This document shows, piece after piece, positions 1 to 62,014 of a stretch of DNA of 64,000 nucleotides. The notes below the pieces were generated by a model, which worked only from the letters and a program-made list of their open reading frames with translations, was not told where the DNA came from and searched no databases. The stretch covers positions 7,580-71,579 of the forward strand of contig WFOC01000121.1 of assembly GCA_015488295.1 (NCBI GenBank). Direction: 5' to 3'. Position numbers and translations under genes: made by a program. Every line of letters begins with the position of its first letter. Positions within the stretch are counted from its first letter, which is position 1. The DNA comes from Gammaproteobacteria bacterium. Lineage in GTDB: Bacteria; Pseudomonadota; Gammaproteobacteria; SZUA-229.

Positions 1-1624
1 CGGACATTTGCTCCATGGCGGAAGATATTTGCTCCAGTGATGCAGCCTGTTCAGATGAGCCCTCTCCTATTTCCTGTGCGGTGCTATTTACTTCCTGTGC
101 CGAGTCAGCATTTAAATCGGTGTTGTTGTGTACTTTTCCGATAACATCTGTCAGGTGTTCGATGGTGCTGTTAACATTGTTTTTAAGCTGATCGAATACA
201 CCGTTATAATCGGTTTCAATTTTCTGTGTCAGGTCGCCCTGTGCTATTGAACGCAGAACTCTGACAACATCATCAATGCCGGCATTGGTTGTTTTTACTA
301 CTTCATTAATGCCTTTTGCCAGCAGTAAATAGAAACCATCTTTGCCGGCTTCGTCAATATGCTGGCTGAAGTCACCGTTTGCGGCGGCTTCAACAATTTT
401 GGAAACTTCGTTTTCTACACTAACTTCAGCGGTGCGGTTCTTCCATTCGACGACAGTGCCAAGGCGTTTACCTGAATCATCAAATACCGGTGTTGCTGCT
501 ATCTGCATAGTAAGTTCACCCACTGGCATGGTTGCAGTGTATGTGTTTTTCAGGTTTTTCAACATGCCCTGCTGGTGTGCAGGGTTCTTGTGAAACTGGT
601 CGATGTTGCTGCCAAGCAGGTTTCTGGAATCGAAGTCAGGTAGCACGTCCTTAATTTTATCCTCGATTTCGTTAAACATTTTCTGTGTTGCATTATTTAT
701 GTAGATGATCTTGTTGTTGGTGTCAGCCATCATTACATTGGTTTCGGCAACATCAAGTGCTGTTCGTACACGATCAGATTCTCTTGCCAGGAATCTTGCG
801 TTATCAACATCGAAGCCCTGTTTTATCTGCATGGATTTTAATGCGCGCATCAGGTCGCCGGCCTCGTCGCTGCGTCTGATATTGATGGCATCATCATATT
901 TTCCTTCTGCCATGTTGTTCATGGTGGCGATGCATTGTCGTATCGGTTTATTTATACAATTGCTGATAAACAGACTGATGATAAGAGCAAGCACGGCAGA
1001 CATGCCGCCACTGAGCAGGAGAAATTTTGTAGTGAAAATATTGCTGCTATCAAATGTCAGTGTGTTTCCATTTGCGCCCAGGTCTATGCCGGCAAAAATG
1101 AAAGCCATAAACATGAAGGTGACGGTAACCACAGGAAACAGCAGTTTTGGTATTAACCGCATGCGTGTAAATATGTTCAGATTAATCAGGCGGCGCAGCA
1201 GTGAAGGTTTGTATGTATCGTTTCGCATGCTGGCATATAAAGCTTCTGCCTCATCTACCTGTGATTTTTCAGGTTTTTTTCGTACTGACATATGGCCTAT
1301 GATTTTGCCGTTTTCACGCACTGGTGTGACATTGGCTTCGACCCAGTAATAATCACCGTTTTTGCAGCGGTTCTTTACCATGCCGACCCATGGCTTGCCT
1401 TTATTTATTGCATCCCATAAACCTTTAAACGCTCTGGCTGGCATGTCCGGGTGGCGAACGATATTATGATCCTGTCCGATAAGTTCATCTTCAGTAAAAC
1501 CACTGATCTCAACGAAATCCTGATTGATGTAGGTTATTTTTCCCTGCAAGTCTGTTTTGGAAACAATTTGCTGACTTTCATCAAAAATTAATTCATTGTC
1601 TGTTATTGGCATATTTAATTTCAT
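1..1624 (-). CDS. Methyl-accepting chemotaxis protein, C-terminus cut by window edge (N-terminal Aer-type PAS, TM hairpin, HAMP, second PAS, HAMP repeats, start of signalling domain)
   Basis: My reverse-strand translation from the ATG at 1624 gives MKLNMPITDNELIFDESQQIVSKTDLQGKITYINQDFVEISGFTEDELIGQDHNIVRHPDMP... and stays open to position 1. It is absent from the ORF track because it runs off the edge. Plus-strand ORFs 342-593 and 705-1349 are its antisense shadows. The DNA is paralogous to 3079..3870. Confidence 0.85.
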   Translation of the reverse strand, partial: MKLNMPITDNELIFDESQQIVSKTDLQGKITYINQDFVEISGFTEDELIGQDHNIVRHPDMPARAFKGLWDAINKGKPWVGMVKNRCKNGDYYWVEANVTPVRENGKIIGHMSVRKKPEKSQVDEAEALYASMRNDTYKPSLLRRLINLNIFTRMRLIPKLLFPVVTVTFMFMAFIFAGIDLGANGNTLTFDSSNIFTTKFLLLSGGMSAVLALIISLFISNCINKPIRQCIATMNNMAEGKYDDAINIRRSDEAGDLMRALKSMQIKQGFDVDNARFLARESDRVRTALDVAETNVMMADTNNKIIYINNATQKMFNEIEDKIKDVLPDFDSRNLLGSNIDQFHKNPAHQQGMLKNLKNTYTATMPVGELTMQIAATPVFDDSGKRLGTVVEWKNRTAEVSVENEVSKIVEAAANGDFSQHIDEAGKDGFYLLLAKGINEVVKTTNAGIDDVVRVLRSIAQGDLTQKIETDYNGVFDQLKNNVNSTIEHLTDVIGKVHNNTDLNADSAQEVNSTAQEIGEGSSEQAASLEQISSAMEQMS

Positions 1625-1714
1625 AATATCTTCTCTATTAAGCTTTTTTATTTGTTTTTTTCTACATCCCTGTTCAGTCGTTATTCTTTTATTTGTGTGT
1701 TTCTTATATGCCTG

Positions 1715-2245
1715 TTATGCGGCTTCTGCCTCATTATTTATGGCACTGTTTTTTTCTACCCTGTTTATCTGCTCCAGGCTAAAGACTTTGTTTATGTCCA
1801 GTACCATGATGAATTGATCACCGACTTTGCCCATATGCTGCACAAAATCATTGTTGATACGTGTGCCGAAAGATGGTGCCGGTTCAAGCTGTTCTTTTTT
1901 CAGGTTAATGACTTCCTGTACGGAGTCGGCTAAGGCACCCAATACGGTTGATGTGCCTTCTATATTTACTTCAATGATAATGATGCAACTGTCGACGGTC
2001 TGTTCAGTGGCGGCCATGCCAAATTGCAGGCGCAGGTCAACAACAGGGACAACGCTGCCACGCAGGTTAATAACACCCCGCATAAAATCCGGTGATCTTG
2101 GTACAGGTGTTATCTGTGTGTACTCCAGAACTTCGCGCACTTTGCTTATCTCGGTAGAAAACGATTCACCATCAAGCTTGAAGGTAAGGTACTGAACTGT
2201 CTCGTCATTCTGTGTGATATCGTTATGCTCTGTTTCATCGTTCAT
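1715..2245 (-). CDS. cheW: CheW coupling protein (accessory chemosensory operon)
   Basis: 176 aa. CheW-like fold signature YLTFKLDGESFSTEISKVREVLEY..ITPVP..P.FMRGVINLRGSVVPVVDLR. Confidence 0.9.
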   Translation of the reverse strand: MNDETEHNDITQNDETVQYLTFKLDGESFSTEISKVREVLEYTQITPVPRSPDFMRGVINLRGSVVPVVDLRLQFGMAATEQTVDSCIIIIEVNIEGTSTVLGALADSVQEVINLKKEQLEPAPSFGTRINNDFVQHMGKVGDQFIMVLDINKVFSLEQINRVEKNSAINNEAEAA

Positions 2246-2314
2246 AGCTATGGTTTTCCCTGTTGTACTTTTTATCCAGTGGTTTTGTGTATATTCAAGC
2301 CGTTATTCTGCGAC

Positions 2315-5104
2315 CTAGTATTTAACAAAAGCACTGTTCTCATAATTATCATCAATGTCGTAATCAAAACCTTCTGTATCGTTTGATGTTTTTCTGTGTT
2401 TGTCTTCGATGTCGATTACCTGGCTATGTGTTGTGCCGGATGATTCATTGTTTCTGTGCTCAACTTTGCCTGTTGTACTGCTTCTGTTTTTTGATGCTGA
2501 ATTTTCTGCCAGCACGAAGAAGCTCATGTTCTCGCGTTGTTCTTCTGCCTGGCTGGTAAGCTGGCTTGCTGATGTTACGAGTCCTTCGGCAGATGATGCG
2601 GAGCGTTGTACAGTCTGGTCGAGTTGCTGGATAGCCTTGTTGATTTCATCGGCACCTATATCCTGTTCACGTGAGGCAACGCTGATTTCCTGTACCAGTT
2701 CTGCCGTTTTCTGGATGTCTGGCACCAGCTGCAATAATCTGGTACCTGCCTGTTCAGCGATGACTACAGTAGAGCCGGAAAGGTCGCCAATTTCGCCGGC
2801 TGCTTTCTGACTGCGTTCGGCCAGTTTTCGAACTTCGGCAGCAACCACTGCAAAGCCCTTGCCGTGTTCACCGGCACGTGCAGCTTCAATAGCAGCGTTT
2901 AATGCCAGCAAGTTTGTCTGTCGTGCAATCTCTTCAATGATGGAAATTTTTTCAGCGATAGCTTTCATGGCGACTACGGCTTCACTTACGGTCTGTCCGC
3001 TTTCTTTGGCATCGCTGGCTGCTTTCTGTGCGATTTGTTCAGTCTGACCGGCGTTGTCAGCACTTTGACGAATGTTGGCAGACATCTGTTCCATTGAAGA
3101 TGAAATTTCCTCTAGCGATGCGGCCTGTTTTGATGAGCCCTCACCAAGTTGCTGTGCGGTGTTGTTTACTTCCAGTGCTGATTCAGCACTGAGGTCGGTG
3201 TTGTTGCGAACTTTTTCAATAACATCGGTCAGACGTTCGATAGTGATATTGACATCATTTTTAAGCTGATCAAAAACACCGTTATAATCGTCTTCAATTT
3301 TCTGTGTCAGATTGCCCTGTGCCAGTGAACGCATCACGCGTACCACATCTTCAATGCCGGTGCTGGTTGTTTGCAGTACCTGGTTGATGCCTTTTGCCAG
3401 AACCAGAGAGAAGCCCTGTTTGCCATTTTCATCAATGTTTTTGCTGAAATCTCCGTTAGCTGCTGCTTCGACAATATGTGCAACTTCATTTTCAATTTCG
3501 ATGTCAGTGGTTCTGTCACTCCACTGCACGACAGTGCCCTGGCGCTCACCATTCTCGGCGAATACCGGTGTTGCGGTAATCTCCATGGTTAGCTCACCCA
3601 TAGGCATGGTCATCGTCTGTGTACTGCTGAGTTTGTCCAGTGAATCCTGATTCAGTAGCAGGTGGTTGATGTTGGTATTTATCAGGTTGCTGGAGTCAAA
3701 ATCAGGAATTACCTGTTTCAGCTTGCCTTCAATGCTGTTAAACATCTCCTGCAATGCTTCATTTATATAGATAATTTTATTGCTGGCATCAGCTACCATC
3801 ATGTTGACCGATGCCACATCCAGTGCCGTTTTGATGCGGCCACTCTCTTCTGCCATGTTGCGTATTTTGGTCCGGTTACTATCAAGGCGCGTCTGAAGTT
3901 TCTTCAGTTCGCCCATTAATATGCCAAGCTCGTCCTTGCTGCGAATATCGATAACACTGTCGAAATTACCGTCACCGATCTGGTTAAACACTTCAATGAT
4001 TTTGTTGATTGGATTGACGATACCTGTTACCACCACGAATGCTGCAAAGATGGCAATAATGACAATCAGTAATGACAGACCGATTTGCAGGTACATTGTT
4101 GTTTTGTTCGCTTTTATCCTGTCATTAAGCAGTGCCAGGAGTTCAGTTGCAGCACTGTCAAACAGATGTGTTGTTGCGTCAATGGCGTTGCTGCCGGCGG
4201 TAAATAATTCTGATGGTTCCATTTCAAGAATGCCGCCTGATTCGAGCAGACCTTTTTCCACAGTGTCTAAAAATGTCTGGCTGGCAGATATATAGTTATG
4301 CAAAGCTTCTGATAACTTTGATGATAATTCAGGGTTGTGACTAATGGCCACTTCAATGCTGCGGGTGGTGGTTTCCAGTTGTTCTTTTAATATTCCAGCT
4401 TCAATTTTGAAGTCGAGCATCTGTTCGGGTGTAATGCTTCCTGTTGCCAGAATACCTGAACCTTTACCTCGCAGGATTCCAAGTTTATCCAGCAAGGCAG
4501 GAATGCGGATGACAATTGCATCCATCAGGTAATAACTGTCCAGCTCAGGATCAAGAATGAGATTACTGGTATCACCAACGTGCATGATCATATCGTTAAT
4601 GTTTTTAACCAGTTCACTGTGTCGCCTGAAACTTTCAGCGGCAGTCATGTTTTCTGAAACTGTTGAAAACTTTTTCCAGTCTGTTTTAAATGTCTGCCAT
4701 AATTTATCCATGTCCAGCATCTCACCGAGGCGGCTATGGGTGTTTTCAACGACCTTGATTGCTTCATCGATCTGTTTACGCTTTTCTATCAGCTTTTGTC
4801 GAAATGACTTGTCACCGTTCAGCAGGCTGTTCGTCATGCCACGGTGTTGCGCTATGTTTACCACCAGACGTTCTAGTGGTCGTACGTATTCGACACCATA
4901 AGTTTCCATGGTGTCGTTGGTAATAGTCTCATTCAATTCAATAAACAGTATGCTCATCAGCCCTACAATAGGGACTATCAGCGCAGCGATAACAATGCCA
5001 AGCTTGTATGAAAGCTTCATGTTGTTGAGTATGTTTATACGTTGTGTCCAGAAAGTTACGGATTTGTTCGACTGGTTTTTTGATGCATGGTTACTTGTTG
5101 TCAT
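2315..5104 (-). CDS. Methyl-accepting chemotaxis protein, 929 aa (large helical periplasmic sensor between two TM segments, HAMP, PAS, HAMP repeats, MA domain)
   Basis: Highly conserved MCP hairpin tip [41 protein letters not shown]. Two hydrophobic segments flank a roughly 300-aa helical region ([24 protein letters not shown]). Confidence 0.9.
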
Positions 5105-5143
5105 AGCTTTTTATATTTAGTTTATTTTTTTGGGGTTAATTAT

Positions 5144-7255
5144 TTAGTGAAATGCTTTTTGGGCGGTGGATGCATCCTGAATCAATACATTTGTATCCAG
5201 AATTAATGCGACGTTACCATCCCCTAGAATGGTTGCACCGGCAAGCCCTTTGACTCCTTCGTATACTTTTCCAAGACCTTTTATAACGGTCTGATGTTGG
5301 CCAATTACCTGGTCAACGGTAAATCCAAAACGTGCATCGCCATTTCGAATGACGACGATTTGTTCTATATCCAAGGCGTTTTCATTGTTGTTAAAACATT
5401 CACGCAGGCGCAGGTATGGCACCAGCTCACCGCGGACTTCAATCAATTTATTGCCGTTGGCACTCTTGACTTCTTCTGCGGTGAGTTCGATGCACTCATC
5501 AACCTGTGATAACGGGATAACGTATTTATCGTGCTCAACCTGAACCAGCAGGCCTTCGATAATGGCCAGGGTCAGTGGCAGTTTGATGGTGACGGTGCTG
5601 CCATTACCGGGGATGCTGTCGATGCTTACTGTGCCGCGTAGTTCTTCGATGGAACGCTTCACCACGTCCATGCCGACACCGCGACCGGAGACACTGGAAA
5701 CAACTTTTGCTGTTGAGAATCCGGCATCGAATATCAGGTTGTATAGTTCCTGGTCGGTGGGTTTTGAGTCTTCACTCAGTACACCACGTTCGATGGCTTT
5801 GCTGCGTATTGCTTCTGCATCGAGGCCGGCACCATCATCCTTGATAGTGATAACGACGTGTGATTCACGGTGCACGGCCGAGATAAGCACGGTGCCTTTT
5901 TCGGGTTTGCCGGCAGCTTTACGTTGCTCTGGCATTTCAATGCCATGGTCGATGCTGTTTCGAATAAGGTGAACCAGCGGATCGCCGAGTCGGTCGATGA
6001 CTGTTTTATCCAGTTCGGTTTCTGCACCTTCAGTGACCAGGTCGATTTTTTTACCCAGGTCGTTGGAAAGGTCGCGTACCAGGCGGCGAAACCGTGAGAA
6101 TGTGGTGCCGATGGATAACATGCGCAGCCCCAGCGTGTTATCTCTCAGTTCTGTGGTCAAACGTTCGATGTCTTCAGCGATGCTGAACAGTGACGGGTCG
6201 CGTAGTTGTGTGGCGGACTGGTTAAGTCTGGCCTGGGCGATAACCAGCTCGCCGACAAGGTCCATCAAGATGTCGAGTTTTTCTGCAGGTACTTTTACGT
6301 TGGAAACGCCTTCACTTGCTTTGCGTTTTTTATGTTGTTTGCGCAGCACTTTTTGTTCATCGAGTGCGGACTGAATTTTTTCAGGGGCGATGTTTTCAGA
6401 GTCGGCTAATATTTCACCGATTTTTTTCTGTTGTGCGTGTGCGTGTGCAATCTGCTCTTCTGTGGCATCGCCCTTTTCAACCAGAATTTCTCCCAGGGGT
6501 TTGTCTTCTGGTGTGTCAGACCAGTGACCGCTCTGGTCAACGACTTTTATGTCTATTTCCCAGTCATCTTCAACAAAAATAAATACATCATTTAGTGCAT
6601 TGATACCCTGATCGGTGGTGAGGATAAGATCCCATGTCAGGTAACATTTTTCTGGATCAGCCTCTTTCAGTGTTGGTAAATCACAGGCGATGGTTGTGAT
6701 ATGGCACGGACCCAGGGAACGTATCTCACGCAGGATAGGCAAAACATCCATGCCGTTGGCAAATGAATCCAGCCCCGGATTAATACGAACGCGGTATGTC
6801 TGGGTGTTGTCGCTACTGCTGTTACCGGCTGATTTTTTTTCACTGTTAGCTTCACCAGTGTTTGCTCCGCTGTCCTGATCATCCGTATTCGGAACCAGGG
6901 AGCTTAATCGTGCCAGCAATTCATCTGAAGCCTGATCCAGCTCTTCGTTGGATTCTTTTTCTTCCAGCAGCAGCCGAATGTGATCGCCTGAATCCAGGCT
7001 GATGCTGATTAATTCTTTGGTTATTTGCAGGTCGCCGTTTCTTACCAGGTCAAAGGCATTTTCCAGGTGGTGCGTAAACGCTGCCAGCTTTTCAAAGCCA
7101 AACATTGAGCCCGAACCTTTAATGGTATGCATGGCCCGAAAAGCGCGATCTACGCAATCAGAATCATCAGGCTGTTCCTCTAGCTCCAGCATGGCAGCTT
7201 CAAGGTCGATTAATAATTCATCAGCCTCTTCACGAAAAGTGTCTTCTATGCTCAT
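5144..7255 (-). CDS. cheA: CheA histidine kinase (accessory system; P1 Hpt, P2-like, P3, P4 ATPase, P5 CheW-like)
   Basis: 703 aa. Hpt motif RAFRAMHTIKGSGSMFGF, HLIRNSIDHGIE (N box), DDGAGLD, GRGVGMDVV, C-terminal CheW-like domain. Confidence 0.9.
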   Translation of the reverse strand: MSIEDTFREEADELLIDLEAAMLELEEQPDDSDCVDRAFRAMHTIKGSGSMFGFEKLAAFTHHLENAFDLVRNGDLQITKELISISLDSGDHIRLLLEEKESNEELDQASDELLARLSSLVPNTDDQDSGANTGEANSEKKSAGNSSSDNTQTYRVRINPGLDSFANGMDVLPILREIRSLGPCHITTIACDLPTLKEADPEKCYLTWDLILTTDQGINALNDVFIFVEDDWEIDIKVVDQSGHWSDTPEDKPLGEILVEKGDATEEQIAHAHAQQKKIGEILADSENIAPEKIQSALDEQKVLRKQHKKRKASEGVSNVKVPAEKLDILMDLVGELVIAQARLNQSATQLRDPSLFSIAEDIERLTTELRDNTLGLRMLSIGTTFSRFRRLVRDLSNDLGKKIDLVTEGAETELDKTVIDRLGDPLVHLIRNSIDHGIEMPEQRKAAGKPEKGTVLISAVHRESHVVITIKDDGAGLDAEAIRSKAIERGVLSEDSKPTDQELYNLIFDAGFSTAKVVSSVSGRGVGMDVVKRSIEELRGTVSIDSIPGNGSTVTIKLPLTLAIIEGLLVQVEHDKYVIPLSQVDECIELTAEEVKSANGNKLIEVRGELVPYLRLRECFNNNENALDIEQIVVIRNGDARFGFTVDQVIGQHQTVIKGLGKVYEGVKGLAGATILGDGNVALILDTNVLIQDASTAQKAFH

Positions 7256-7569
7256 GCCTCTGCTCCTTTTGTACTGAAGGTCATATGTGTCATCAGTCGA
7301 CTGGTTTCGAGTGCATCTTTGGCTGCATCGCTGCTGGCGATAATATTTATTTCGTTACCATTGTCTGATAATTGTTTGGACATGGCTGCCAGCAATTGTA
7401 AGCCGCAGGTGTCTATTTCCTCGATGCCGGCAAGATCAACTTCAAGTGACTGTTCTGAGGAAAAGTTTTCGACCAGATACTCTTTGTATTCGGCTGCGGT
7501 ATAGATGGTTAATTCTCCATCGATACTAAGCAGAGATTTTTCATTTTCCGTGACCATTTTTATTGCCAT
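7252..7569 (-). CDS. STAS-domain protein (anti-sigma-factor-antagonist fold), translationally coupled to cheA
   Basis: 105 aa. Pattern LSIDGELTIYTAAEYKEYL...LEVDLAGIEEIDTCGLQLL matches SpoIIAA/RsbV-type STAS (D-L-x-G-x-x-x-I-D-S/T-x-G-L). Its TGA overlaps the cheA ATG as ATGA (7252-7255). Confidence 0.7.
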   Translation of the reverse strand: MAIKMVTENEKSLLSIDGELTIYTAAEYKEYLVENFSSEQSLEVDLAGIEEIDTCGLQLLAAMSKQLSDNGNEINIIASSDAAKDALETSRLMTHMTFSTKGAEA

Positions 7570-7632
7570 TTTTTTGCCTGCACTTTTATGTTTTGGTTTG
7601 CTGATTTAATCCGCTTGTCTAATGGTGGTTTT

Positions 7633-7995
7633 TTAAGCCAGCTTTGCAACGGCGGAAAGTAATGCGTTAGGTTGAAACGGTTTTACCAGCCAGCCTTTTG
7701 CGCCGGCAGATTTTCCTTCCTGTTTTTTTGCTTCACCTGATTCAGTAGTGAGCATCATGATCGGTGTGAATTTATACTGAGGATGCTGTTTCACTTCTTT
7801 TACCAGGCCAATGCCATCAAGATTAGGCATGTTGACATCGCTTACGATCAGGTGGATTTTCTGACCGGTTAATTTTGAAAGTGCATCTTTGCCATCGCAG
7901 GCTTCGATGACTTCATAACCGGCACCTTTAAGTGCGATGCTTATGACCTGTCGGATTGATGAAGAGTCATCGACTACCATAATTGTTTTTGACAT
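7633..7995 (-). CDS. cheY: CheY-like single-domain response regulator
   Basis: 120 aa. VVDDSSSIR, SDVNMPNLDG, K near C-terminus (WLVKPF). Confidence 0.85.
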   Translation of the reverse strand: MSKTIMVVDDSSSIRQVISIALKGAGYEVIEACDGKDALSKLTGQKIHLIVSDVNMPNLDGIGLVKEVKQHPQYKFTPIMMLTTESGEAKKQEGKSAGAKGWLVKPFQPNALLSAVAKLA

Positions 7996-8008
7996 GTCTT
8001 TATTTCCT

Positions 8009-9271
8009 CTAAAAAAGTGTTAAGTCTGTTTCTGCAGTGTCAGGTCCGTTATGTACCTTTGAATTATTGTGCATATAATGTTGTTCTTCCGTGGTGTAGC
8101 TATCTTTCATTTTTTGTACCTGTTCCTCAAAATTTACTGGTGAAAGTTTTTTGTTGTCCATGCGTTGTGACTGGCTGCTGTTGACGTTTTCGACCATGGT
8201 GTTCATGTCGTTGAGAACTTTGTTGAGAATTTGAGACACGCGATCCTGGAACTGAAAACTCACCAGAACATTTGATATCTGGTCTCTGATGTCTTCACTG
8301 GAAGAACGTAAAGATGAGCTGTCATCCTGCAGGGTTTCGATGGTGTCCTGTAGTCGTGCAAATACGGAATCAATGGTAGTTTTCCCATCATCGACAACAG
8401 TGCGGTTATGGTGGATTGAATCTTCTGCCTGTTTTTGTGTGTCATTAACGGCTTCAACAATGTTGGTGACTTTTTCAATCATCTTCTGACCGGTGTCAGC
8501 CGACATTGATGCCAGTTTTCTTACTTCATCGGCAACCACGGCAAAACCTCGACCATGCTCACCGGCACGAGCGGCTTCGATGGCTGCATTTAATGCCAGC
8601 AGGTTAATCTGGTCAGCAATCTGGCCAACAGCACCCGCCATCTCGTTTAATTCGCTGGTCTGTGCAGACAGCCCCTGAACTTCGCTGAGTAAACGGTCTT
8701 CCAGGCTGAGGGATGATTCAAGTGAATCCACCACTGTTTTCAGTGATTTTTCACTTTCGTTAAACAGGTTGATTATTCCCTGACCATCACCCAGATTGTT
8801 GCTTTTTGACTGTGATGCAGAGATAACATCTTCGAGTTGTGAAGCGAGTGCAGAAAAGCCGCCGGACAATTCATTAATGCTTTGTTCGGTTTGAATATTC
8901 GAGCTTTCAATCTGTCGTGAAAGTATCGGCAGCATCTGCTGGCAAAGGCTTTCCAATGCCCAGGTGTATTCCTGGTATTGCAGTATTTCTTTTGCGTGCT
9001 GTGTGTCTTCATTTTGTCTGGCATTACTGTCCAGCTTATTGATGAAAACAGCAGAGGCGACACCGGCAATTAAAAAGCCTGCGCCAACACTCATAAGAAC
9101 CGTATCACCGGTAAAAAACAATGCAATGGCCGCACCGACACCGAGTAGCACTGTCATGACCTGTGCGACCATGATGCTATCCAGTCCCGAAGTGGAAGGC
9201 ATGTTATCAGCACGACTGGTTACGTGTTCTGAAATGCCATTATCTAATATTGCTTCACCTAAACAACTCAT
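8009..9271 (-). CDS. Methyl-accepting chemotaxis protein, 420 aa, membrane hairpin with no periplasmic sensor or obvious HAMP
   Basis: [34 protein letters not shown] tip. The N-terminus has two adjacent hydrophobic helices. Confidence 0.85.
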
Positions 9272-9289
9272 ATTATTCCCCGTATATAT

Positions 9290-9580
9290 TTATTCAATAA
9301 TTTTTGCGGTTGCATACAACAATGTAAATGCTGTGATAACAACAGCAGCAGATAACATGATGGCAACAATGTCTGGTAGCAGATCTATTTCAATGCCGAA
9401 GAACAATAAGACACTGACAAAGGATAAAACGAATAATGAAAACACAGAGTACAGAACATATAATCCCGCGACTGTATTAAGGTTTAACGATGTCGTATTA
9501 TTGAAAAAAAGGGCATCATCGATGTTTCTTTCATTGAACGCAAAGATGTCTCTGTTCATTCTTTTTTCATTTTTTTTCAT
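9290..9580 (-). CDS. Small membrane protein (96 aa, two predicted TM helices), first gene of the accessory che operon
   Basis: ATG preceded by GAGGAT 6 nt upstream. Hydrophobic stretches GLYVLYSVFSLFVLSFVSVLLFFGI and IVAIMLSAAVVITAFTLLY. I recognise no family. Confidence 0.45.
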   Translation of the reverse strand: MKKNEKRMNRDIFAFNERNIDDALFFNNTTSLNLNTVAGLYVLYSVFSLFVLSFVSVLLFFGIEIDLLPDIVAIMLSAAVVITAFTLLYATAKIIE

Positions 9581-9624
9581 GTTTTATCCTCATTTTTTAG
9601 AACTGTTTATTTGTTCTGCTTTAT

Positions 9625-9651
9625 ATATCGGTATCGCCTTTTGAATCTTTA
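9625..9651 (-). promoter_or_regulatory. Sigma28 (FliA)-type promoter upstream of the accessory che operon
   Basis: Minus-strand reading TAAAGATT-N11-ACCGATAT versus consensus TAAAGTTT-N11-GCCGATAA. It lies about 45 nt upstream of the ORF start at 9580. Confidence 0.6.
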
Positions 9652-9736
9652 AGCTAATCTGGATATATTCTTTAAAATACTGATTTATTAAGCTTTCAGA
9701 AAAATGTCAAAAAATTGTCTGCGCTAGTGCTTTGAA

Positions 9737-9752
9737 TGCAATCTACGTGCCA
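9737..9752 (-). promoter_or_regulatory. Sigma54 (RpoN) -24/-12 promoter, in tandem upstream of the sigma28 promoter
   Basis: Minus-strand reading TGGCACGTAGATTGCA is a perfect TGGCAC-N5-TTGCA. Confidence 0.6.
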
Positions 9753-10019
9753 GATAGGCTGTGCCTGTGATGTGTTTTTGTTGCTTTCTCCGGAAGCCGG
9801 AGTTAGTCAGGTAAAATGGACTTTATACTGTAAATAATGTGATTTATCTGCGATGGGATGAAGCAGGGAAAGCATGAAATACGGCAAAATGTTGCCGCTT
9901 TTTCCGGCGGGATGTGAGGGTGAACTGACAGGAGCAGATCAGGCTGAACCAGCCTGTTTGTTGCCTGAAAAAAGCAGTGTAATGCCCGCCCAGGTGATAG
10001 CTAATAACTCGTTTTGTAG

Positions 10020-10544
10020 TTAAAAACCTGCAACCATATCGTATTGCTCATCAGTGATGAACTTTTCGCTGTCGAGAATAATAATCAGCTCATCTTCGCG
10101 TGACATAACGCCGGAGATATATTTTGAGCTGCCGCCTTTTGCCAGTTTTGAACTTGCATTGATCAGGGATTCTGGAAGGTCGATAATGTCGGCGACCCGG
10201 TCGACGACAACGGCAACAATATCATCCTTTGATTCCATTACAATCATGCGGGACAGATCGGTGTGTTCTGCCGGTGGTAGATTGATACGACTGCGGCCAT
10301 CAATGACCGAGACTACGTTGCCCCGAATGTTGGTAATGCCGACGATATAATCCGGTGCCCCGGGTACGGGTGAAATATTGTTTATGCGCAGTATCTCGCG
10401 AACATTTTTTACCACGACACCATAAATTTCCTGTCCCAGTTGAAACGTAACCCACCTGATCAGTGGTTCGCAGACCGGCTCATCATCAAATAAGCTGTCT
10501 TCGAGTATCGCGTGTTCCATTTTCATTGCCTCTATTTTATTCAT
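10020..10544 (-). CDS. cheW: CheW coupling protein (main flagellar chemotaxis system)
   Basis: 174 aa. WVTFQLGQEIYGVVVKNVREILR...ISPVPGAPDYIVGITNIRGNVVSVIDGR. Confidence 0.9.
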   Translation of the reverse strand: MNKIEAMKMEHAILEDSLFDDEPVCEPLIRWVTFQLGQEIYGVVVKNVREILRINNISPVPGAPDYIVGITNIRGNVVSVIDGRSRINLPPAEHTDLSRMIVMESKDDIVAVVVDRVADIIDLPESLINASSKLAKGGSSKYISGVMSREDELIIILDSEKFITDEQYDMVAGF

Positions 10545-10549
10545 ATCAT

Positions 10550-11155
10550 CTATTTAGTGCAGTTTTTTAAAAGTTTGATGACACCTTCGATGTCCAGTAA
10601 GACAAGGCCCAGCCGTGCAACGGTGCCGGCCAGCCATATGCGTTCACTTTCGGCATCACGCCAGTGTACATGTTGTTTGGAAATGGTTTGCTGATCGACC
10701 AGGTGGTTGCCGATGAAACCTGTTGTTGAGCCTTTTAGCACGATGATATCAACGGGGTTTTGCTGATGTGCTGTTGCCGAATCATGATCACCAATGCCAT
10801 TCATCAACAGGTACTCAAGGTCGATAACATTGATGGTCTGATCATTGCTGCATGCTGTTCCAACAAAAAGGTTTGCTGTATTCTGTGCCTTGTCGTTTTC
10901 CCTGATCTGCTGCTGCTTTAGTGTTTCACTGATGCTTTCTGCAGGAACAGCTATTTTCAGGCCGGCGATGTTAAAAATCTGGCACTCAAAATCTGCTTTT
11001 TCGTAGGCTGCGTTAAAGTTGACAGCTTGTTGCCGGGTTTCCTGTAATTCGATAACCTGGTCAACCGCCTGCTCATCAATGCCAAGCATATTCGATATGT
11101 AATCTTTTTCGATTTGCTGCGCCAGCTGGCAGGCATTTTGTTCGTTTTTATTCAT
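10550..11155 (-). CDS. parP: CheW-like domain protein in the ParP position (chemotaxis-array partitioning partner of ParC)
   Basis: 201 aa with a C-terminal CheW-like region. Synteny cheA-parC-parP-cheW as in Vibrio and Pseudomonas. 4-nt overlap with parC. Confidence 0.6.
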   Translation of the reverse strand: MNKNEQNACQLAQQIEKDYISNMLGIDEQAVDQVIELQETRQQAVNFNAAYEKADFECQIFNIAGLKIAVPAESISETLKQQQIRENDKAQNTANLFVGTACSNDQTINVIDLEYLLMNGIGDHDSATAHQQNPVDIIVLKGSTTGFIGNHLVDQQTISKQHVHWRDAESERIWLAGTVARLGLVLLDIEGVIKLLKNCTK

Positions 11156-11952
11156 GCGACTTCCCTGTTTTCACTGTTATTGACACGGCTAAGCAGCATT
11201 TGCTCAAGAAGTACTTCGTAAGCTTTCAGGCCATGCGTGTTTTTACTGATGAAGGAAATCGGCTTTCCGGAAAAGCTGGCATCCCTGAATTTGGTGTCGA
11301 CCGGAATGGGTTGTGAGGAAATACAGTCTTTGTATTCATCCTGTAAAATCTTCAGGCTTTTTTGTGAAGCGCGTGTGCGTTGATCATACATAGTGGGCAG
11401 CACGGTGTAACTCAGTTTTTTATGCAGTGACTTTTCAATCATCTTGATGGTGCGCAACATACGATGCAGGCCTTTTATCGCCAGCAGTTCGGTTTGTACC
11501 GGCACCACCAGCTGGTTACAGGCAACCAGTGCGTTGAGCATCAGTAATCCCAGTACCGGCGGGCAGTCGATCAATACATGTGAGTATTGTTGTGAAGCAT
11601 TTTTCAGTACCCGTGACAATATTAATCCCATGCCATTGTTTGCCCCAAAGCGTTTTTCCAGGGTGGCAACAGCGACAGATGAAGGAATGATTGATAGATG
11701 CTCTATTCCGGTTGGGTGCACCACGCTGTCAAGCTCAAGGGTTTTGTTGTTACTTTGTGCGGTGAATAATTCAAACACACCCTGACTGACGGTTTCAGGT
11801 TCCATGCCAAAGTAGCTGCTCATTGAGGCGTGTGGATCAAGATCTATTATCAGGGTTTCTTCATTGCGTCCGGCAAGAATTCCTGCCAGCGTAATTGCAC
11901 TGGTGGTTTTTCCTACCCCGCCCTTCTGATTTGCAAATGCCCAGATATTCAT
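11152..11952 (-). CDS. parC: ParA/MinD-family ATPase in the ParC position (chemotaxis array segregation)
   Basis: 266 aa. Deviant Walker A FANQKGGVGKTTSAITLA. The start codon directly abuts the cheA stop (TAG ATG). Confidence 0.75.
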   Translation of the reverse strand: MNIWAFANQKGGVGKTTSAITLAGILAGRNEETLIIDLDPHASMSSYFGMEPETVSQGVFELFTAQSNNKTLELDSVVHPTGIEHLSIIPSSVAVATLEKRFGANNGMGLILSRVLKNASQQYSHVLIDCPPVLGLLMLNALVACNQLVVPVQTELLAIKGLHRMLRTIKMIEKSLHKKLSYTVLPTMYDQRTRASQKSLKILQDEYKDCISSQPIPVDTKFRDASFSGKPISFISKNTHGLKAYEVLLEQMLLSRVNNSENREVA

Positions 11953-14010
11953 CTAGTGCACCATGTAGTTTGAGGCGTATGCGCCCATCAGTCCGGGCAT
12001 GTCAAGAACCAGTGCAATACCGCCGTCACCGGTGATGGTGGCACCGGAAAACCCCGGTACTTCGTTTAGTATTTTGCCCAGGGGCTTTATTACCACTTCT
12101 TCCTGGCCGATGATCTGATCGACTACCAGACACAGGCGTGTGCCGCCCATTTGTACCACCAGCACTTTCTGTTCATCCTTGGGACCATCAAAGCTGTTTG
12201 AGCGTACCAGCCAGGGGTGTAGATAAAACAGCGGCAGGGTTTGATCCCGGATGCGTATAACATCCTGGCCATCCACTACATTAATCTGCTCGGGTTCCAT
12301 GTTGAATGTTTCATGGACATTGGTCAGCGGCAAGGCAAACTGATGGCGGTCAAGTTTTATCATCAGTGTTGGCAGGATGGCTAAAGTTAAGGGCAGGAAG
12401 ATTGTTATCACCGAGCCTTCACCAAGTTTTGAGTCGATTTCGATACTGCCGCTGAGTTCATTAATACGGGTTTTTACCACGTCCATGCCAACACCACGAC
12501 CTGAGACATCGGAAATTTCTGACTTGGTTGAAAAGCCCGGTGCAAAGATCAGGTTGAAGGCTTCCTTATCAGAAAGTTTGCTGGCTTCATCTTCAGTCAT
12601 CATGCCGCTTTCTGCTGCTTTACGCTTGAAGACTTCTGCGTTCATTCCCTTGCCGTCATCTGACACGGTTAATAATATTTGATCACCTTCCTGTTTTGCA
12701 CTCAGTGTGACGGTGCCCTGACGTGGCTTACCGGAGGCAAATCGTTCATCCGGTGATTCGATGCCGTGATCGGCAGAGTTGCGCACAAGATGGATTAAGG
12801 GGTCGGCCAGTGCTTCGACCAGACTTTTGTCGAGATCGGTGTTTTCGCCGATCAGTTCAAGATTAATATCTTTATTGAGTTTTCTGGCGAGATCACGAAT
12901 AACACGAGGAAAGCGGCTGAAAACTTTTTTGATCGGCTGCATGCGTGTTTTCATTACCGATGACTGCAGATCAGAAGTGACCAGTTCAAGCGTGGTTATC
13001 GCTTCTTCGATGTGTTCGTGAGTTATTGTTTGTTTGAGCATGGACAGGCGGTTTTTTACCAGCACCAGTTCGCCGACCAGATTCATAATGTCATCAAGTC
13101 GTTCGGTGTCGACACGCACACTGGTGTCTTTTTGTGCCAGTGGTTTTTTAGCGGCTGTTTTTTCTTTTGTGTCTGGCTTTGATTCCTGTGGTTTTTCTTC
13201 GGCAACAGGTTTTACGGCTTCTGTTTTTTCAACCGCTGCTTTTTCAGTTTCCACAGCTTCATTTGTTTTGCTTTCTGGTGCCTTGCTTCCTGGTCCCCTG
13301 TTTTTGCCGTGCATCTGGTCGAGCATGGCTTCAAACTCATCATCAGTGATTAAGCCATCATCAGTGTCTGTATCAGCTTCAGTTTTTTCAGCTTTATTAT
13401 CGGCTGCAGAGTGTTTACCTTTGCCATGTAATTCATCGAGCAGGTTTTCAAATTCATCATCGGTAATCAGATCACTTTGTTCTGTATCGCTTTCTTTTTT
13501 CGTAGAATTTTCGCTCAGAGCCTGCTGACGCATTTGTTCAAATTCATCATCCATGCTCAGTGCTGTAACGGTTTCTGTGGCGGTTTCTGCAACGGCCGGT
13601 TCTTCCGCTTTGTCCTGTTCGGCTTTGTTACCACCAAGATAGCTATCGAGTCGGGCTAGTAATTCCGGGCTGGCGGACTCCTGCTCTTCGTTTTCGCGGA
13701 TACTTTCAAACATGTCGCCAACGATATCGAGTACCTGGAACATGACATCGATGAGGTCGGCATCAACACTGATTTTTCTATTGCGCAACAGATCAAAGAC
13801 ATCTTCAGCACGATGACAAACTTCGACCATGGGTGTCAGTTTCATAAAACCGGCACCGCCTTTTATGGTGTGAAAAGCACGAAATATGGCGTTCAGTAAA
13901 TCGTCATCCTCCGGGTTGCTTTCCAGTTCGGTTAGCTGGTCGTTGAGCAAGTCGTATAACTCGCCTGCTTCGACCAGAAAATCCTGCATTATTTCGTCAT
14001 CTATACTCAT
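11953..14010 (-). CDS. cheA: CheA histidine kinase (main system); no folded P2, acidic repeat linker instead
   Basis: 685 aa. Hpt FRAFHTIKGGAGFM, HLVRNSADHGIE, DDGKGMN, GRGVGMDVV, P5 CheW-like C-terminus. Confidence 0.95.
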   Translation of the reverse strand: MSIDDEIMQDFLVEAGELYDLLNDQLTELESNPEDDDLLNAIFRAFHTIKGGAGFMKLTPMVEVCHRAEDVFDLLRNRKISVDADLIDVMFQVLDIVGDMFESIRENEEQESASPELLARLDSYLGGNKAEQDKAEEPAVAETATETVTALSMDDEFEQMRQQALSENSTKKESDTEQSDLITDDEFENLLDELHGKGKHSAADNKAEKTEADTDTDDGLITDDEFEAMLDQMHGKNRGPGSKAPESKTNEAVETEKAAVEKTEAVKPVAEEKPQESKPDTKEKTAAKKPLAQKDTSVRVDTERLDDIMNLVGELVLVKNRLSMLKQTITHEHIEEAITTLELVTSDLQSSVMKTRMQPIKKVFSRFPRVIRDLARKLNKDINLELIGENTDLDKSLVEALADPLIHLVRNSADHGIESPDERFASGKPRQGTVTLSAKQEGDQILLTVSDDGKGMNAEVFKRKAAESGMMTEDEASKLSDKEAFNLIFAPGFSTKSEISDVSGRGVGMDVVKTRINELSGSIEIDSKLGEGSVITIFLPLTLAILPTLMIKLDRHQFALPLTNVHETFNMEPEQINVVDGQDVIRIRDQTLPLFYLHPWLVRSNSFDGPKDEQKVLVVQMGGTRLCLVVDQIIGQEEVVIKPLGKILNEVPGFSGATITGDGGIALVLDMPGLMGAYASNYMVH

Positions 14011-14037
14011 GGTTTTATACGCTTTTTAAAACTGAAT

Positions 14038-14799
14038 TTAAAATCCTAAAGTTGACAGCAGATCATCGACATCGTCCTGCGAGTTCATCACGTCATCATT
14101 TTTTATGCCCGGTACAGCGGGGCCATAACCTGTTCTGTTTTTGCTGTCATCAGTAACCTTGTTATCGTTGCTGCTATAGCTGTTAACTTTTAAAATGGCG
14201 ATCAGGTTGTGCTCGACATCCTGTACCATCTTGCTGACGCGCTGAATGATCTGACCGCTGAGATCCTGATAACCCTGTGCCATTAAAATCGTATTCATGT
14301 CCTTGTTGATGTGTTTTATATCGGTGTTCACCTTGTCGAGAAAACCTTCGAGCTCTTCTTCAATGAAGGAGAGTTCGTTGTTCTTTGTCAGTTTTTTCAT
14401 GTGACCCTGTAACAGTCTTTGCAGATAGGTTGCGCGTTCACTTAAATTATCCAGCAGTGGAGAGCTGTTTTCGATGGCGGTTAATGTCTGGTTAGCCGCA
14501 TCTTCGGTTAGCTCGATTACGTGGTTGAGGTTGTGTTTTGCATCGGGCATTTCATTGTGCATGATGTCCTGCAGGCGTGCTTCGCTACCGATGTCGTTGA
14601 TGGTTTCGTGCAATTCACGGGTGAGCTTTCCCAGGTCCTGGAAAATACCGTTTTCACGTGAGACACATAACTCGTTTATAACAAGGTCGGCCTGATCAAT
14701 GTCGCCTGCTTCGAGGTGTCTGACCAGTGCTTTTGCCTGTTTGAGATTTTCGCTCAGAGCGGTGTCACATGATACGGCTGCATTCGTTGCATTCTGCAT
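14038..14799 (-). CDS. cheZ: CheZ phosphatase
   Basis: 253 aa. Catalytic-region motif QGYQDLSGQIIQRV and C-terminal CheY-binding peptide DDVDDLLSTLGF. Confidence 0.9.
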   Translation of the reverse strand: MQNATNAAVSCDTALSENLKQAKALVRHLEAGDIDQADLVINELCVSRENGIFQDLGKLTRELHETINDIGSEARLQDIMHNEMPDAKHNLNHVIELTEDAANQTLTAIENSSPLLDNLSERATYLQRLLQGHMKKLTKNNELSFIEEELEGFLDKVNTDIKHINKDMNTILMAQGYQDLSGQIIQRVSKMVQDVEHNLIAILKVNSYSSNDNKVTDDSKNRTGYGPAVPGIKNDDVMNSQDDVDDLLSTLGF

Positions 14800-14801
14800 T
14801 G

Positions 14802-15188
14802 TTATCCCTCCAGCCTTTCAAATACCTTGTCAACTTTTTCTTTCAGGGTGTCTGCAGTGAAGGGTTTAACAACGTAACCGTTAACCCCTGCCTGTGCCGC
14901 TTCCATGATCTGTTCACGCTTTGCTTCGGCGGTGACCATCAGTACCGGCAGGGATGACAGCTTGGGATCAGCGCGCACGGCTTTCAGTAAATCGATACCT
15001 GGCATGCCCGGCATGTTCCAGTCGGTGACCAGAAAATCAATGCCGCCGCCTTCAAGAATCGGTAGTGCGGTTTTGCCATCGTCGGCTTCAACAATGTTGT
15101 TGAAGCCGATTTCGGTTAACAGGTTTTTTACGATTCGTCGCATGGTCGAAAAGTCATCGACGACGAGTATGTTCATATTTTTATCCAC
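14802..15188 (-). CDS. cheY: CheY chemotaxis response regulator
   Basis: 128 aa. [35 protein letters not shown]. Confidence 0.95.
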
Positions 15189-15228
15189 GGTTTTCTCCTA
15201 CTGGTATTTAACTTTTGTAAAATAGTTG

Positions 15229-15978
15229 TTATGCATTGTCATCGACCCATTCAGTCATTCGTGCGCGCAGGCGAAGCAATGCCTGGCCGTGTATCTGGCA
15301 CACGCGCCCTTCGGTGATGCCTAGTACTTCACCTATTTCACGCAGGTTTAACTCTTCGTCGTAATACAGTGCCATCACCATTTTTTCGCGTTCAGGTAAG
15401 CTTTTAATTTTGTCTGCCAGTCCGCATTTAAAACTTTCTTCCTGCAGGTGGTCATAAGGGTTGAGCCGTTCGCTGCTTTCGTATTCATCCTGGCAACCGC
15501 CGACGGAAACGATGTCTTCATAACTGAGCAGTTTGCAACCGGCAGCGTCTTTTACCATGCTGTAATATTCATCCATGCTGAGGCCGAGCTGTTCAGCAAT
15601 CTCGTCGTCTTTTGCATCTCTTCCCTGCTCGCTTTCGATGCTGCGGATGGCTTCGGACAGTTGTCTTGATTTTTTATAGACCGAACGGGGGGTCCAGTCG
15701 CAACGTCGCACTTCGTCGATCATTGCTCCCTGGATACGGATGCGGGCATAGGTTTCAAAACTTGCACCTTTGGACATGTCGTAGCCTTTCAGGGCTTCGA
15801 ATAATCCGATCATGCCGGTTTGTATAATGTCTTCGAGCTGTACGTTGGCGGGTAATCGCGTAATCATGTGATAAGCGATGCGCTTGACGAAAGGCGCATG
15901 TTCGGTCATCAGTGCATCATAATTGGGCGTATTATCAGAAATCGAACCTACGTCAGCATAACTTGATACCAGAGCCAT
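15229..15978 (-). CDS. fliA: Flagellar sigma factor FliA (sigma28)
   Basis: 249 aa. Sigma70-family regions 2-4 (DIIQTGMIGLFEALKGYD, ELNLREIGEVLGITEGRVCQIHGQAL). Synteny flhF-flhG-fliA-cheY. Confidence 0.95.
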   Translation of the reverse strand: MALVSSYADVGSISDNTPNYDALMTEHAPFVKRIAYHMITRLPANVQLEDIIQTGMIGLFEALKGYDMSKGASFETYARIRIQGAMIDEVRRCDWTPRSVYKKSRQLSEAIRSIESEQGRDAKDDEIAEQLGLSMDEYYSMVKDAAGCKLLSYEDIVSVGGCQDEYESSERLNPYDHLQEESFKCGLADKIKSLPEREKMVMALYYDEELNLREIGEVLGITEGRVCQIHGQALLRLRARMTEWVDDNA

Positions 15979-36149: not shown

Positions 36150-36197
36150 CTTTTTTAAATCTATATTTATCATTAACTTAGGTGTGGTGCATGAGTG

Positions 36198-36217
36198 CCT
36201 GACAAGATTTTGTCAGG
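36198..36217. promoter_or_regulatory. Inverted repeat CCTGACAA-gatt-TTGTCAGG, candidate enhancer/operator about 84 bp upstream of the flrB sigma54 start
   Basis: Perfect 8-bp arms. The related direct repeat AGTGCCTG(A/T)CA occurs at 36194 and 36227. Confidence 0.35.
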
Positions 36218-36284
36218 TGATTTAAAAGTGCCTGTCAGCATTATGTCGCCACATAACTGGCGCATAAAATATGCAAATTCTGTT

Positions 36285-36311: not shown

Positions 36312-36339
36312 CTTGCATATAGATAACGGGATTTAAACT

Positions 36340-37039: not shown

Positions 37040-37074
37040 TGGGTGTCTACCCGATGGGTGTATTTGCCAGTGCT

Positions 37075-62012: not shown

Positions 62013-62014
62013 CG

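Follow-up and report, generated by a model that had tools for sequence, protein, structure and literature searches.

Chemosensory systems assigned to 'stage 1' of the F7 class share a gene list that comprises STAS, cheY, cheA, two cheW, an aer2-like receptor gene, cheR, cheD, cheB, a gene for an McpA-like receptor, a second STAS and a Ser phosphatase (PMC7184735). This stage is exemplified by cluster III of Vibrio cholerae and Che1 of Shewanella oneidensis, and stage 2 by Che2 of Pseudomonas aeruginosa (PMC7184735, PMC9855816); the stage-1/2 clusters of model species are controlled by RpoS (PMC7534058), and the homologous Shewanella Che1 cluster contains the CrsR/CrsA partner switch controlling RpoS (PMC9855816). 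Methyl-accepting chemotaxis proteins (MCPs) of length class 34H are assigned to F8 systems, such as cluster II of P. syringae pv. tomato and MEALZ_2939-2942 of M. alcaliphilum (PMC11253619, PMC7184735), and are also carried by the 'E. coli-like type 2' clusters of Geobacter, which Tran et al. described without F-class names (PMC2577667). Here we describe an accessory chemosensory operon at the left end of a 64,000-nucleotide stretch of DNA (the window) from a Gammaproteobacteria bacterium of the SZUA-229 lineage (assembly GCA_015488295.1, contig WFOC01000121.1, positions 7,580 to 71,579 of the forward strand). Comparison with related loci favours, with a probability of roughly 0.55, the view that this operon supplies the sensing and kinase functions as one half of a bipartite accessory pathway of the F7 stage-1/F8 lineage, whose output would run through effectors bearing REC domains and not through the flagellar motor.

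Within positions 1-9752, the minus strand carries eight co-directional open reading frames (ORFs), running from orf96 to a PAS-MCP in the order given by the initial annotation (Table 1) and separated by gaps of 18, 13, 63, -4, 39, 69 and 87 nt. Pfam and NCBIfam support all of the domain assignments, orf96 matching no family, and together with identification of the neighbouring F6 genes they bear out the proposal that this is a second CheA/CheW/CheY set adjoining the main che genes. The picture of a self-contained, eight-gene operon is incomplete. Reading leftward beyond the window from the near-identical contigs L081, L084, L087 and L089, together with the relative L088 (MCP929 homologue 74% identical), completes the 800-aa PAS-MCP and adds CheW182, MCP930 and a 1040-aa PAS-MCP, followed by a 400-nt gap, unrelated sensor kinases and mfd. 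The operon thus totals 11 genes: five MCPs, two CheW, CheA, CheY, STAS and orf96. No cheR, cheB, cheD or cheZ is present in the operon or its leftward extension, as the initial annotation had noted for the visible part; what it did not foresee is that the contig carries the adaptation genes farther on, to the right of the window.

These genes were located by a homologue search with the CheR of L173, a locus whose CheA is 61% identical and whose genes are contiguous (MCP, CheY, STAS, CheA, Aer2-like MCP, CheW, CheR, CheB, CheD, REC-HTH and REC-HD-GYP) and sit away from flagellar genes. The search led to the right-hand end of the window, where a REC-HATPase_c_2 gene closes the second half of the system. 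Just past the edge, on the same contig and strand, are encoded a REC-Hpt protein, CheR311, a PDDEXK protein, CheB369, a REC-GGDEF-EAL protein, CheD127, STAS119 and a REC-PP2C protein (REC-SpoIIE/PP2C), this off-window block of adaptation and output genes spanning positions 1515..10008 of L176. CheR, CheB and CheD are 61%, 75% and 57% identical to the L173 proteins, and because these values match that of CheA, the off-window enzymes are, by this comparison, orthologues of those of the accessory pathway. It is their presence on the same contig that suggests the operon to be one half of a bipartite system. CheR311 also aligns without gaps to the pentapeptide-dependent CheR of Salmonella, whereas alignment to CheR1 of P. 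aeruginosa requires a 3-residue gap in the beta-subdomain, a segment that CheR311 keeps and CheR1 lacks; this pentapeptide type fits the tethers found on the receptors (see below).

The flagellar island lies between the two halves, which are ∼55 kb apart. L178, a relative with a 71% identical CheA, encodes CheR, CheB, REC-GGDEF-EAL and CheD upstream of flgA/M/N and cheV, on the same contig and strand as the CheA half and ∼58 kb from it. Since the same split is found in this relative, the bipartite layout and the REC-GGDEF-EAL gene both appear to be conserved. A REC-coupled cyclic di-GMP (c-di-GMP) enzyme stands beside cheB and cheD in all three layouts, being REC-GGDEF-EAL in L176 and L178 and REC-HD-GYP in L173, and in the REC-GGDEF-EAL protein the GGDEF, EAL and RxxD motifs are intact. 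The parts of a partner switch are also present: STAS105 carries a Thr (DTCGL) and STAS119 a Ser (DSSALG) at the phospho-acceptor position, accompanied by the HATPase_c_2 kinase and the PP2C phosphatase. In L176, cheR has a sigma54-like motif 70 nt upstream; considered as evidence of co-regulation, this motif was not used because L178 does not conserve it.

Comparison with the described classes leads us to file the system, on its sequence features, as a rearranged variant within the F7 stage-1/F8 (34H) lineage and not as something categorically new; the lineage is a described one and its output is itself unknown, so that the locus does not fall into a well-characterised class with a known output. 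All of the genes listed for F7 stage 1 occur on one contig, with a STAS gene near cheY-cheA, a tethered Aer2-like poly-HAMP receptor and a complete F6 system (cheY-cheZ-cheA-parC-parP-cheW and cheV, all in the window) alongside. Similarity extends to the individual proteins, the CheY being 55% identical to CheY4 of V. cholerae (VcCheY4) and the Aer2 module matching P. aeruginosa Aer2 with E = 7e-46. Unlike the contiguous stage-1 clusters, the locus is divided into two blocks that bracket the flagellar island, its internal order is cheY-STAS-cheA and not STAS-cheY-cheA, and sigma54 and sigma28 motifs stand where the known systems are under RpoS control. The receptors differ as well. In place of a soluble 36H Aer2-like receptor there are four Aer2-like receptors of class 34H that retain the PAS-HAMP module and are membrane-anchored, with NIT-like, other periplasmic or Aer-PAS inputs. 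In addition, a REC-GGDEF-EAL gene is embedded between cheB and cheD, the phosphatase and the anti-sigma kinase are two separate REC proteins, and CheA703 is only 36-39% identical to gamma- and betaproteobacterial F7 CheAs.

The F8 systems and the Geobacter-type loci resemble the operon in other respects. The associated receptors are of class 34H and end in a pentapeptide of the form xF/YxxF/Y, which is the 34H-specific CheR tether (EFEKF in Geobacter; PMC2577667) and here reads EFVK[Y/F], and the CheR has the beta-subdomain insertion. CheD is present, CheW is present in multiple copies, the nearest cultured CheAs are those of Geotalea/Geobacter (∼54% identity) and the Geobacter-like locus L174 also has a sigma28-like element. 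In the Geobacter-type loci, unlike here, STAS precedes cheY and cheB and cheR lie inside the cluster, and the F8 system of P. syringae differs in having a single 34H receptor, no McpA-like or Aer2-like receptor having been reported for it. The second half of the system also recalls the HptB-HsbR-HsbA partner switch of P. aeruginosa, which we take to lie beside flgM/flgN/cheV/cheR, and CrsR/CrsA: a STAS protein with a Ser in DSS(A/G)LG, REC-PP2C and REC-HATPase_c_2 proteins, a position at the flgA/M/N edge, and a REC-Hpt gene and c-di-GMP enzymes nearby. Unlike in HptB-HsbR-HsbA, the phosphatase and kinase are two proteins, and their genes are contiguous with cheR-cheB-cheD of the accessory pathway. 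Cluster I of V. cholerae (F9) was considered for its 5' order, presumably a transmembrane (TM)-hairpin MCP, cheY, a small gene and cheA, and was rejected: each receptor has a single MCPsignal domain, the long receptors are of the membrane-anchored 34H type, CheW176 and CheW182 are single-domain proteins, and there is neither a DosM-type receptor with a double signalling domain nor a triple CheW.

Alignment of MCP929 with E. coli Tsr (36H) reveals one 7-residue deletion per arm, which places it in class 34H, and the other three long receptors give the same shortened MCPsignal match. The C-termini of the four are AFVKY (MCP929), EFVKY (MCP800), EFVKF and AFVKF, conforming to x-F-V-K-[Y/F], and the tether is kept in most receptors encoded downstream of cheA across the clade, including loci whose sensing half has no cheR. 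From Geobacter-like to vent loci, a second acidic motif, G[FY]x[YL]D[ILM](D/E), lies ∼12-15 residues before the pentapeptide (e.g. window 2315..2400) and may be a second docking site. All four 34H receptors have TM segments and a cytoplasmic PAS-HAMP module of the P. aeruginosa Aer2 type (PDB 3VOL). MCP800 and MCP930 retain the heme-His context NIDxFHKNP (NIDQFHKNP in MCP800) and the distal Trp, while the heme His is lost in MCP929. At the N-terminus of the PAS-MCP stands an Aer-type PAS (E. coli Aer, E = 3e-38), and behind it a TM hairpin that is likewise Aer-like, giving for MCP800 the order Aer-type FAD-PAS, TM hairpin, HAMP, Aer2-type heme PAS, HAMP, 34H domain and EFVKY. The periplasmic domain of MCP929 (∼280 aa, residues ∼56-340, window 3920..4940) aligns end to end with the NIT profile at 24.4 bits, just under the gathering score of 24.9. 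Taken together, the domains point to oxygen or another gas (heme PAS), redox state (FAD-type PAS), probably nitrate/nitrite and one unassigned periplasmic ligand as inputs.

The fifth receptor, MCP420, is of a different kind. It has a TM hairpin (residues ∼33-78) without a sensor domain, a signalling hairpin that can be aligned from end to end with T. maritima TM1143, a receptor of class 44H, and a C-terminus (...DLTLF) comparable to the ..E[IV][ED]LF of the ∼400-aa McpA-like receptors of gammaproteobacterial F7 clusters, to which it is 28-38% identical. In size, TM region and C-terminus MCP420 is thus McpA-like, and the cluster it adjoins is F7/F8-like and not canonical F7. McpA-like receptors of known species are reported to join the F6 arrays and not the system encoded at their own locus (PMC9855816, PMC7534058). 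For this reason, and because it belongs to a different length class, MCP420 probably does not serve the second array as a dedicated receptor and would instead bridge to the F6 array. The initial annotation's three dedicated receptors therefore stand as to their differing inputs (a hairpin without sensor, the large periplasmic domain and an Aer-type PAS) and probably not as to the dedication of MCP420.

The best PDB matches of CheY120 are 4H60 and 4HNR, both VcCheY4 (E = 8e-37, 55% identity over 113 gap-free residues); the matches to E. coli CheY (E = 1e-19) and to the motor-binding VcCheY3 (E = 1e-16) are weaker, and CheY120 shares 38% identity with the window's F6 CheY. All phospho-acceptor residues are kept and the Y106 position is occupied by an aromatic W. 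As VcCheY4 does not bind FliM in pull-downs (PMC3774744), a CheY of this type argues against direct motor output. In CheA703, domains P1 to P5 are intact. Its relatives in the protein database are 60-93% identical and come from uncultured marine and vent Gammaproteobacteria, followed by the Geotalea/Geobacter-type CheAs (50-54%); CheA703 shares 34% identity with the window's F6 CheA. Between its P2-like region and P3, CheA703 carries an insert with tandem MshEN-like motifs, (L/I)GEILVE(K/R)GDAT..Q...A..QQ and K.GE(I/L)L.....(I/V)..EK(I/V)..AL.EQ, which gives an NF053729 hit (E = 6e-9) whose 35.5 bits fall short of the cut-off of 38 and is conserved in all ∼115 CheA family members, Geobacter-type included. 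MshEN domains are defined by a pair of motifs of 24 residues each, RLGxx(L/V/I)(L/V/I)xxG(L/V/I)(L/V/I)xxxxLxxxLxxQ, with a 5-residue spacer, and MshEN-CheA fusions were noted by Wang et al. (PMC5013675). Each repeat of CheA703 has two mismatches to a relaxed form of this motif, with the leading Arg replaced by P or K and a spacer of 1 residue instead of 5, and the insert was not accepted as a c-di-GMP site since it is degenerate against the binding consensus.

It was initially proposed that tandem promoters wire the operon into the flagellar hierarchy, and comparison with relatives supports this. The perfect sigma54 element and the sigma28 element reported upstream of orf96 were both found on the coding strand, 86-101 nt apart. 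The former is one of seven exact matches in the window, six of them on the minus (coding) strand and several in gaps just upstream of flagellar operons (e.g. flgB and flrBC); with up to 1 mismatch allowed, 13 matches are found against 4.8 expected. The latter fits a TAAAG-N14-15-GCCGATAA-like arrangement of -35 and -10 boxes, for which 6 matches occur against 0.35 expected, and FliA is itself encoded in the window. A second tandem promoter at flgB was considered and rejected as a chance match, because the 'GCCGATAT' of its sigma28 match (52575..52601) is the flgB start codon with the codons that follow (ATG CCG ATA TCA). Among six flagellar-adjacent loci (L087, L088, L170, L171, L172 and L175), the sigma28 element TAAAG-N15-(C/T)CGATA(T/A) is kept in all and the sigma54 element TGGCA(C/T)-N5-TTGC(A/T) in all except L172. 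In the five that keep both, the operon directly follows the F6 cheW and the order palindrome-sigma54-sigma28 is preserved, with the palindrome 142-167 nt before the sigma54 element and the latter 68-113 nt before the sigma28 element. Locus L172 has the sigma28 element only, the sigma54 motif and palindrome being absent and an ordinary terminator taking the palindrome's place; the Geobacter-like L174 has the sigma28-like element mentioned above, and neither motif is found upstream of the contiguous locus L173. As the two motifs are islands of conservation in intergenic DNA that has otherwise diverged (49% mean column identity in the remaining spacer), there is good comparative evidence that they behave like real promoter elements, and we infer that the operon would be transcribed with the flagellar regulon from a sigma54 promoter dependent on a bacterial enhancer-binding protein (bEBP) and from a FliA promoter.

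The upstream palindrome was flagged by the terminator scan on the opposite strand and makes a poor terminator. Because the coding strand has no T-run and the sequence itself is conserved, not merely its pairing, an enhancer site is more likely. Related TTTTGCCG/GGCAA half-sites occur ∼145-175 nt upstream of the sigma54 elements of flgB (52779..52813) and of the accessory operon (9882..9897). Since these TTTTGCCG half-sites lie at an equal distance upstream of the flgB sigma54 promoter, they may be a common enhancer motif, which hints at a shared activator for flgB and the accessory operon. The sole bEBP gene in the window is of the FlrC/FleR type (33526..34872). CTGCC(G/A) repeats are found at a similar distance from the sigma54 element at 25960.

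Table 1. Features of the accessory operon, its upstream region and the associated genes within the window
Feature	Position	Strand	Description
Palindrome GGCAA-N4-TTGCC	9883..9896	-	∼145 nt upstream of the sigma54 element; exact match; candidate enhancer (bEBP) site
Sigma54 -24/-12 element TGGCACGTAGATTGCA	9737..9752	-	Exact match to TGGCAC-N5-TTGCW, with GG-N10-GC core
A/T-rich near-palindrome GACAATTTTTTGAC	9706..9719	-	Lies between the promoter elements; conserved in part in L088 and L170
Sigma28 (FliA) element TAAAGATT-N11-ACCGATAT	9625..9651	-	-10 box ends 44 nt before the orf96 ATG
orf96	9290..9580	-	Small membrane protein with two predicted TM segments; GAGGA ribosome-binding site
MCP420	8009..9271	-	McpA-like; N-terminal TM hairpin and long signalling hairpin; Pfam MCPsignal
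CheY120	7633..7995	-	Response regulator with a single domain; V. cholerae CheY4 (F7) type
STAS105	7252..7569	-	Anti-sigma-antagonist type (SpoIIAA/RsbV); stop overlaps the cheA start by 4 nt
CheA703	5144..7255	-	P1 (Hpt), P2-like region, MshEN-like insert, P3, P4, P5
MshEN-like motifs of CheA703	6356..6502	-	Tandem 24-residue motifs; residues 252-300, between P2-like region and P3
MCP929	2315..5104	-	TM1, NIT-like periplasmic domain, TM2, HAMP, Aer2-like PAS, HAMP, 34H signalling domain, AFVKY
CheW176	1715..2245	-	One CheW domain (Pfam/NCBIfam)
PAS-MCP (MCP800)	1..1627	-	First 542 codons of an 800-aa receptor; leaves the window at the left edge
fliA, then F6 cheY-cheZ-cheA-parC-parP-cheW	10020..15978	-	Directly upstream of the accessory operon
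REC-HATPase_c_2	62920..63819	-	RsbW/anti-sigma-kinase type; last gene of the second half of the system

In the proposed pathway, the 34H receptors, CheA703 and the two CheW proteins would build their own array, apart from the 40H array of the F6 system, and would report electron-acceptor and redox status (O2, nitrate/nitrite and FAD redox). This array would be produced along with the flagella from the sigma54 and FliA promoters, with adaptation supplied in trans by CheR, acting through the tethers, CheB and CheD. The phosphoryl group of CheA would be passed to the CheY4-like CheY120 and to the distal REC domains of REC-GGDEF-EAL, REC-PP2C and the REC-anti-sigma kinase, so that the output would be c-di-GMP turnover and/or a partner switch of the two STAS proteins, and the motor would not be switched directly. 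A link between the two systems would probably come from MCP420, possibly along with orf96, inserting into the F6 array. Given the type of CheY and the genes that accompany cheB and cheD, an output through c-di-GMP turnover or partner switching is probably to be preferred to one through the motor.

Several observations weigh against this proposal. The class placement is based on receptor length, gene content and pairwise identities, and 55% identity to VcCheY4 does not prove that CheY120 has lost FliM binding. The sigma28 promoter and the site beside the flagellar genes fit a motility-related output. The partner-switch genes are absent from the corresponding position in L178, and given also their likeness to the HptB-HsbR-HsbA module, which is not known to be driven by a chemosensory kinase, their link to the pathway is weaker than that of REC-GGDEF-EAL. 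In L172 (9594..9920) and L175 (9632..9973), the gene at the STAS position has decayed, with a differing N-terminus, a shortened C-terminus, loss of the DT.GL motif (EIDTCGLQLL in STAS105) and no match to the STAS profile; since the gene has decayed in these two loci, STAS cannot be essential for the core function everywhere. Finally, the F6 system could likewise make use of the distal CheR, CheB and CheD, which lie at the flagellar island's edge, and further cheR and cheB copies may exist elsewhere in the genome. No cheB lies between cheA and parC in the F6 cluster (10550..14010), where we take the F6 clusters of Vibrio and Pseudomonas to have it, no cheR lies next to cheV (53822..52875), and nowhere in the window does the F6 system have its own cheB or cheR.

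Of the other explanations, the one with the most weight, which we nevertheless regard as doubtful, is that the operon belongs to a second taxis pathway proper, serving aerotaxis or energy taxis. The 34H array would here signal through CheY120 to FliM in parallel to the F6 system, with the promoters ensuring co-production with the motor. This would suit an operon directly after the F6 che genes in the flagellar island and behind a conserved FliA-type promoter, as well as receptors with typical energy-taxis inputs (Aer PAS, Aer2 heme PAS and NIT), and the lineage belongs to the 'F' classes, in which the E. coli descendant drives the motor (PMC7184735). CheY120, with its full set of phospho-acceptor residues and aromatic W, would in itself be compatible with such a role, but it is far nearer to VcCheY4 than to the motor-binding CheYs, and VcCheY4 fails to bind FliM despite having the same W 'in' residue. 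Neither half of the accessory system contains a CheZ, CheC or CheX phosphatase, and the characterised stage-1/2 F7 relatives show no swimming phenotype (PMC7534058, PMC9855816). It is unlikely that the operon modulates the F6 system in place of forming an independent pathway, with CheY120 as a phosphate sink or competitor and with MCP420, and perhaps other receptors, plugged into the F6 array so that F6 gain is tuned by oxygen or redox state. The 34H and 40H receptors differ by three heptads per arm, and length mismatches exclude receptors from an array (PMC7534058); moreover, the system owns a CheA, two CheW and CheR/CheB/CheD, and the two CheAs are only 34% identical. What keeps modulation under consideration is that in P. 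aeruginosa and S. oneidensis the F6 arrays take up McpA-like receptors encoded in F7 clusters, that a review on V. cholerae suggests that the similarly built VC1394 may behave likewise, that VcCheY4 has been proposed as a phosphate sink and that the accessory operon adjoins the F6 operon with no strong terminator between them.

An extension of the proposed pathway, which we consider speculative and rather unlikely, would make the array an electron-acceptor sensor that sets the lifestyle of the cell. CheA703 would phosphorylate REC-GGDEF-EAL and the REC-PP2C/REC-anti-sigma-kinase pair on O2, nitrate and redox cues, the STAS pair would release or sequester a sigma or anti-sigma factor (e.g. FlgM/sigma28 or RpoS), and the MshEN-like insert of CheA would bind c-di-GMP and feed back on the kinase. 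Least probable is that the promoter motifs go unused, transcription being read through from the fliA-cheYZA-parCP-cheW transcript or depending on another sigma factor, such as the RpoS used by Vibrio and Pseudomonas F7 clusters (PMC7534058). The terminator scan detected no convincing intrinsic terminator after the F6 cheW and one in six sigma28-pattern matches in the window is demonstrably spurious, but this is difficult to reconcile with the survival of both motifs in five to six loci amid diverged intergenic DNA, with the preservation of their order and spacing, with the co-occurrence of palindrome and sigma54 element, and with the same exact sigma54 pattern at six other sites of the window, several just upstream of flagellar operons.

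The organism itself is an uncultured gammaproteobacterium of vents and probably Thiotrichaceae-like. Identical or near-identical proteins were found solely in hydrothermal-vent metagenomes and metagenome-assembled genomes (MAGs), the closest relatives of the receptors and of CheA in the genome collection are held by uncultured Thiotrichaceae MAGs (CheAs 64-66% identical to CheA703), and FlhA shares at most 69% identity with that of any species representative. The position of orf96 is filled by an ORF of 76-98 aa in all six flagellar-adjacent loci, overlapping the MCP start in three of them; its sequence is weakly conserved (12-29% identity outside the closest relative), and L173 has no convincing counterpart. 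Comparison of window 2517..3610 with the receptor genes downstream (L081 11714..12807) shows ∼80% DNA identity over the 3' halves of the receptor genes, and the pair CheW176/CheW182 is closely paralogous, suggesting that MCP-CheW modules were recently duplicated in tandem or underwent gene conversion. The number of these modules differs among relatives, and L171 has a carbonic anhydrase gene among them.

The window as a whole is a single large minus-strand flagellar island. The F6 set (FliA, CheY, CheZ, CheA, a ParC-like ATPase, a ParP-like protein and CheW) was confirmed and is separated from the accessory operon by a 439-nt gap; its cheV is also within the window, and its ParP-like protein, only 201 aa long, matches CheW weakly. 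A master regulator of the flrA/fleQ type is missing from the place it presumably takes in Vibrio and Pseudomonas, between the fliS-like genes and the flrB/flrC-type pair (36095..33526); the one ORF in the corresponding 1.2-kb stretch of the window (36150..37415) encodes 162 aa and runs on the opposite strand. The sigma54 element at 36149 has a CTGACAAAATCTTGTCAG palindrome 65 nt upstream. Between the partner-switch and flagellar genes, the opposite strand encodes a HATPase-REC-GGDEF-EAL hybrid (1056 aa) and an HDOD protein (287 aa) at 58842..62839(+), and a further histidine kinase gene is located at 58304..56925(-).

The stage-1/2 F7 and F8 systems are widespread, yet none of those in model species (cluster III of V. 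cholerae, Che2 of P. aeruginosa, Che1 of Shewanella and the F8 system of P. syringae) has a known output. Our findings leave the general view of chemosensory systems as it was. In this locus, one and the same set of parts is split physically between an operon for sensing and kinase functions and a block for adaptation and output, which provides a natural experiment, and the constant presence of a REC-coupled c-di-GMP enzyme beside cheB and cheD points to a testable output. The placement of the sensing half beside the F6 system and behind flagellar sigma54/sigma28 promoters bears on how an F7-type system was recruited to the motor in enterics. If the array did act as a lifestyle sensor, it would be both a product and a regulator of the flagellar hierarchy, because the operon itself stands behind sigma54 and sigma28 promoters. 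The receptor set, with its Aer-PAS, Aer2 heme-PAS and NIT-like inputs, suggests how a bacterium of the vent sulfur-oxidiser type may integrate oxygen, nitrate and redox cues.

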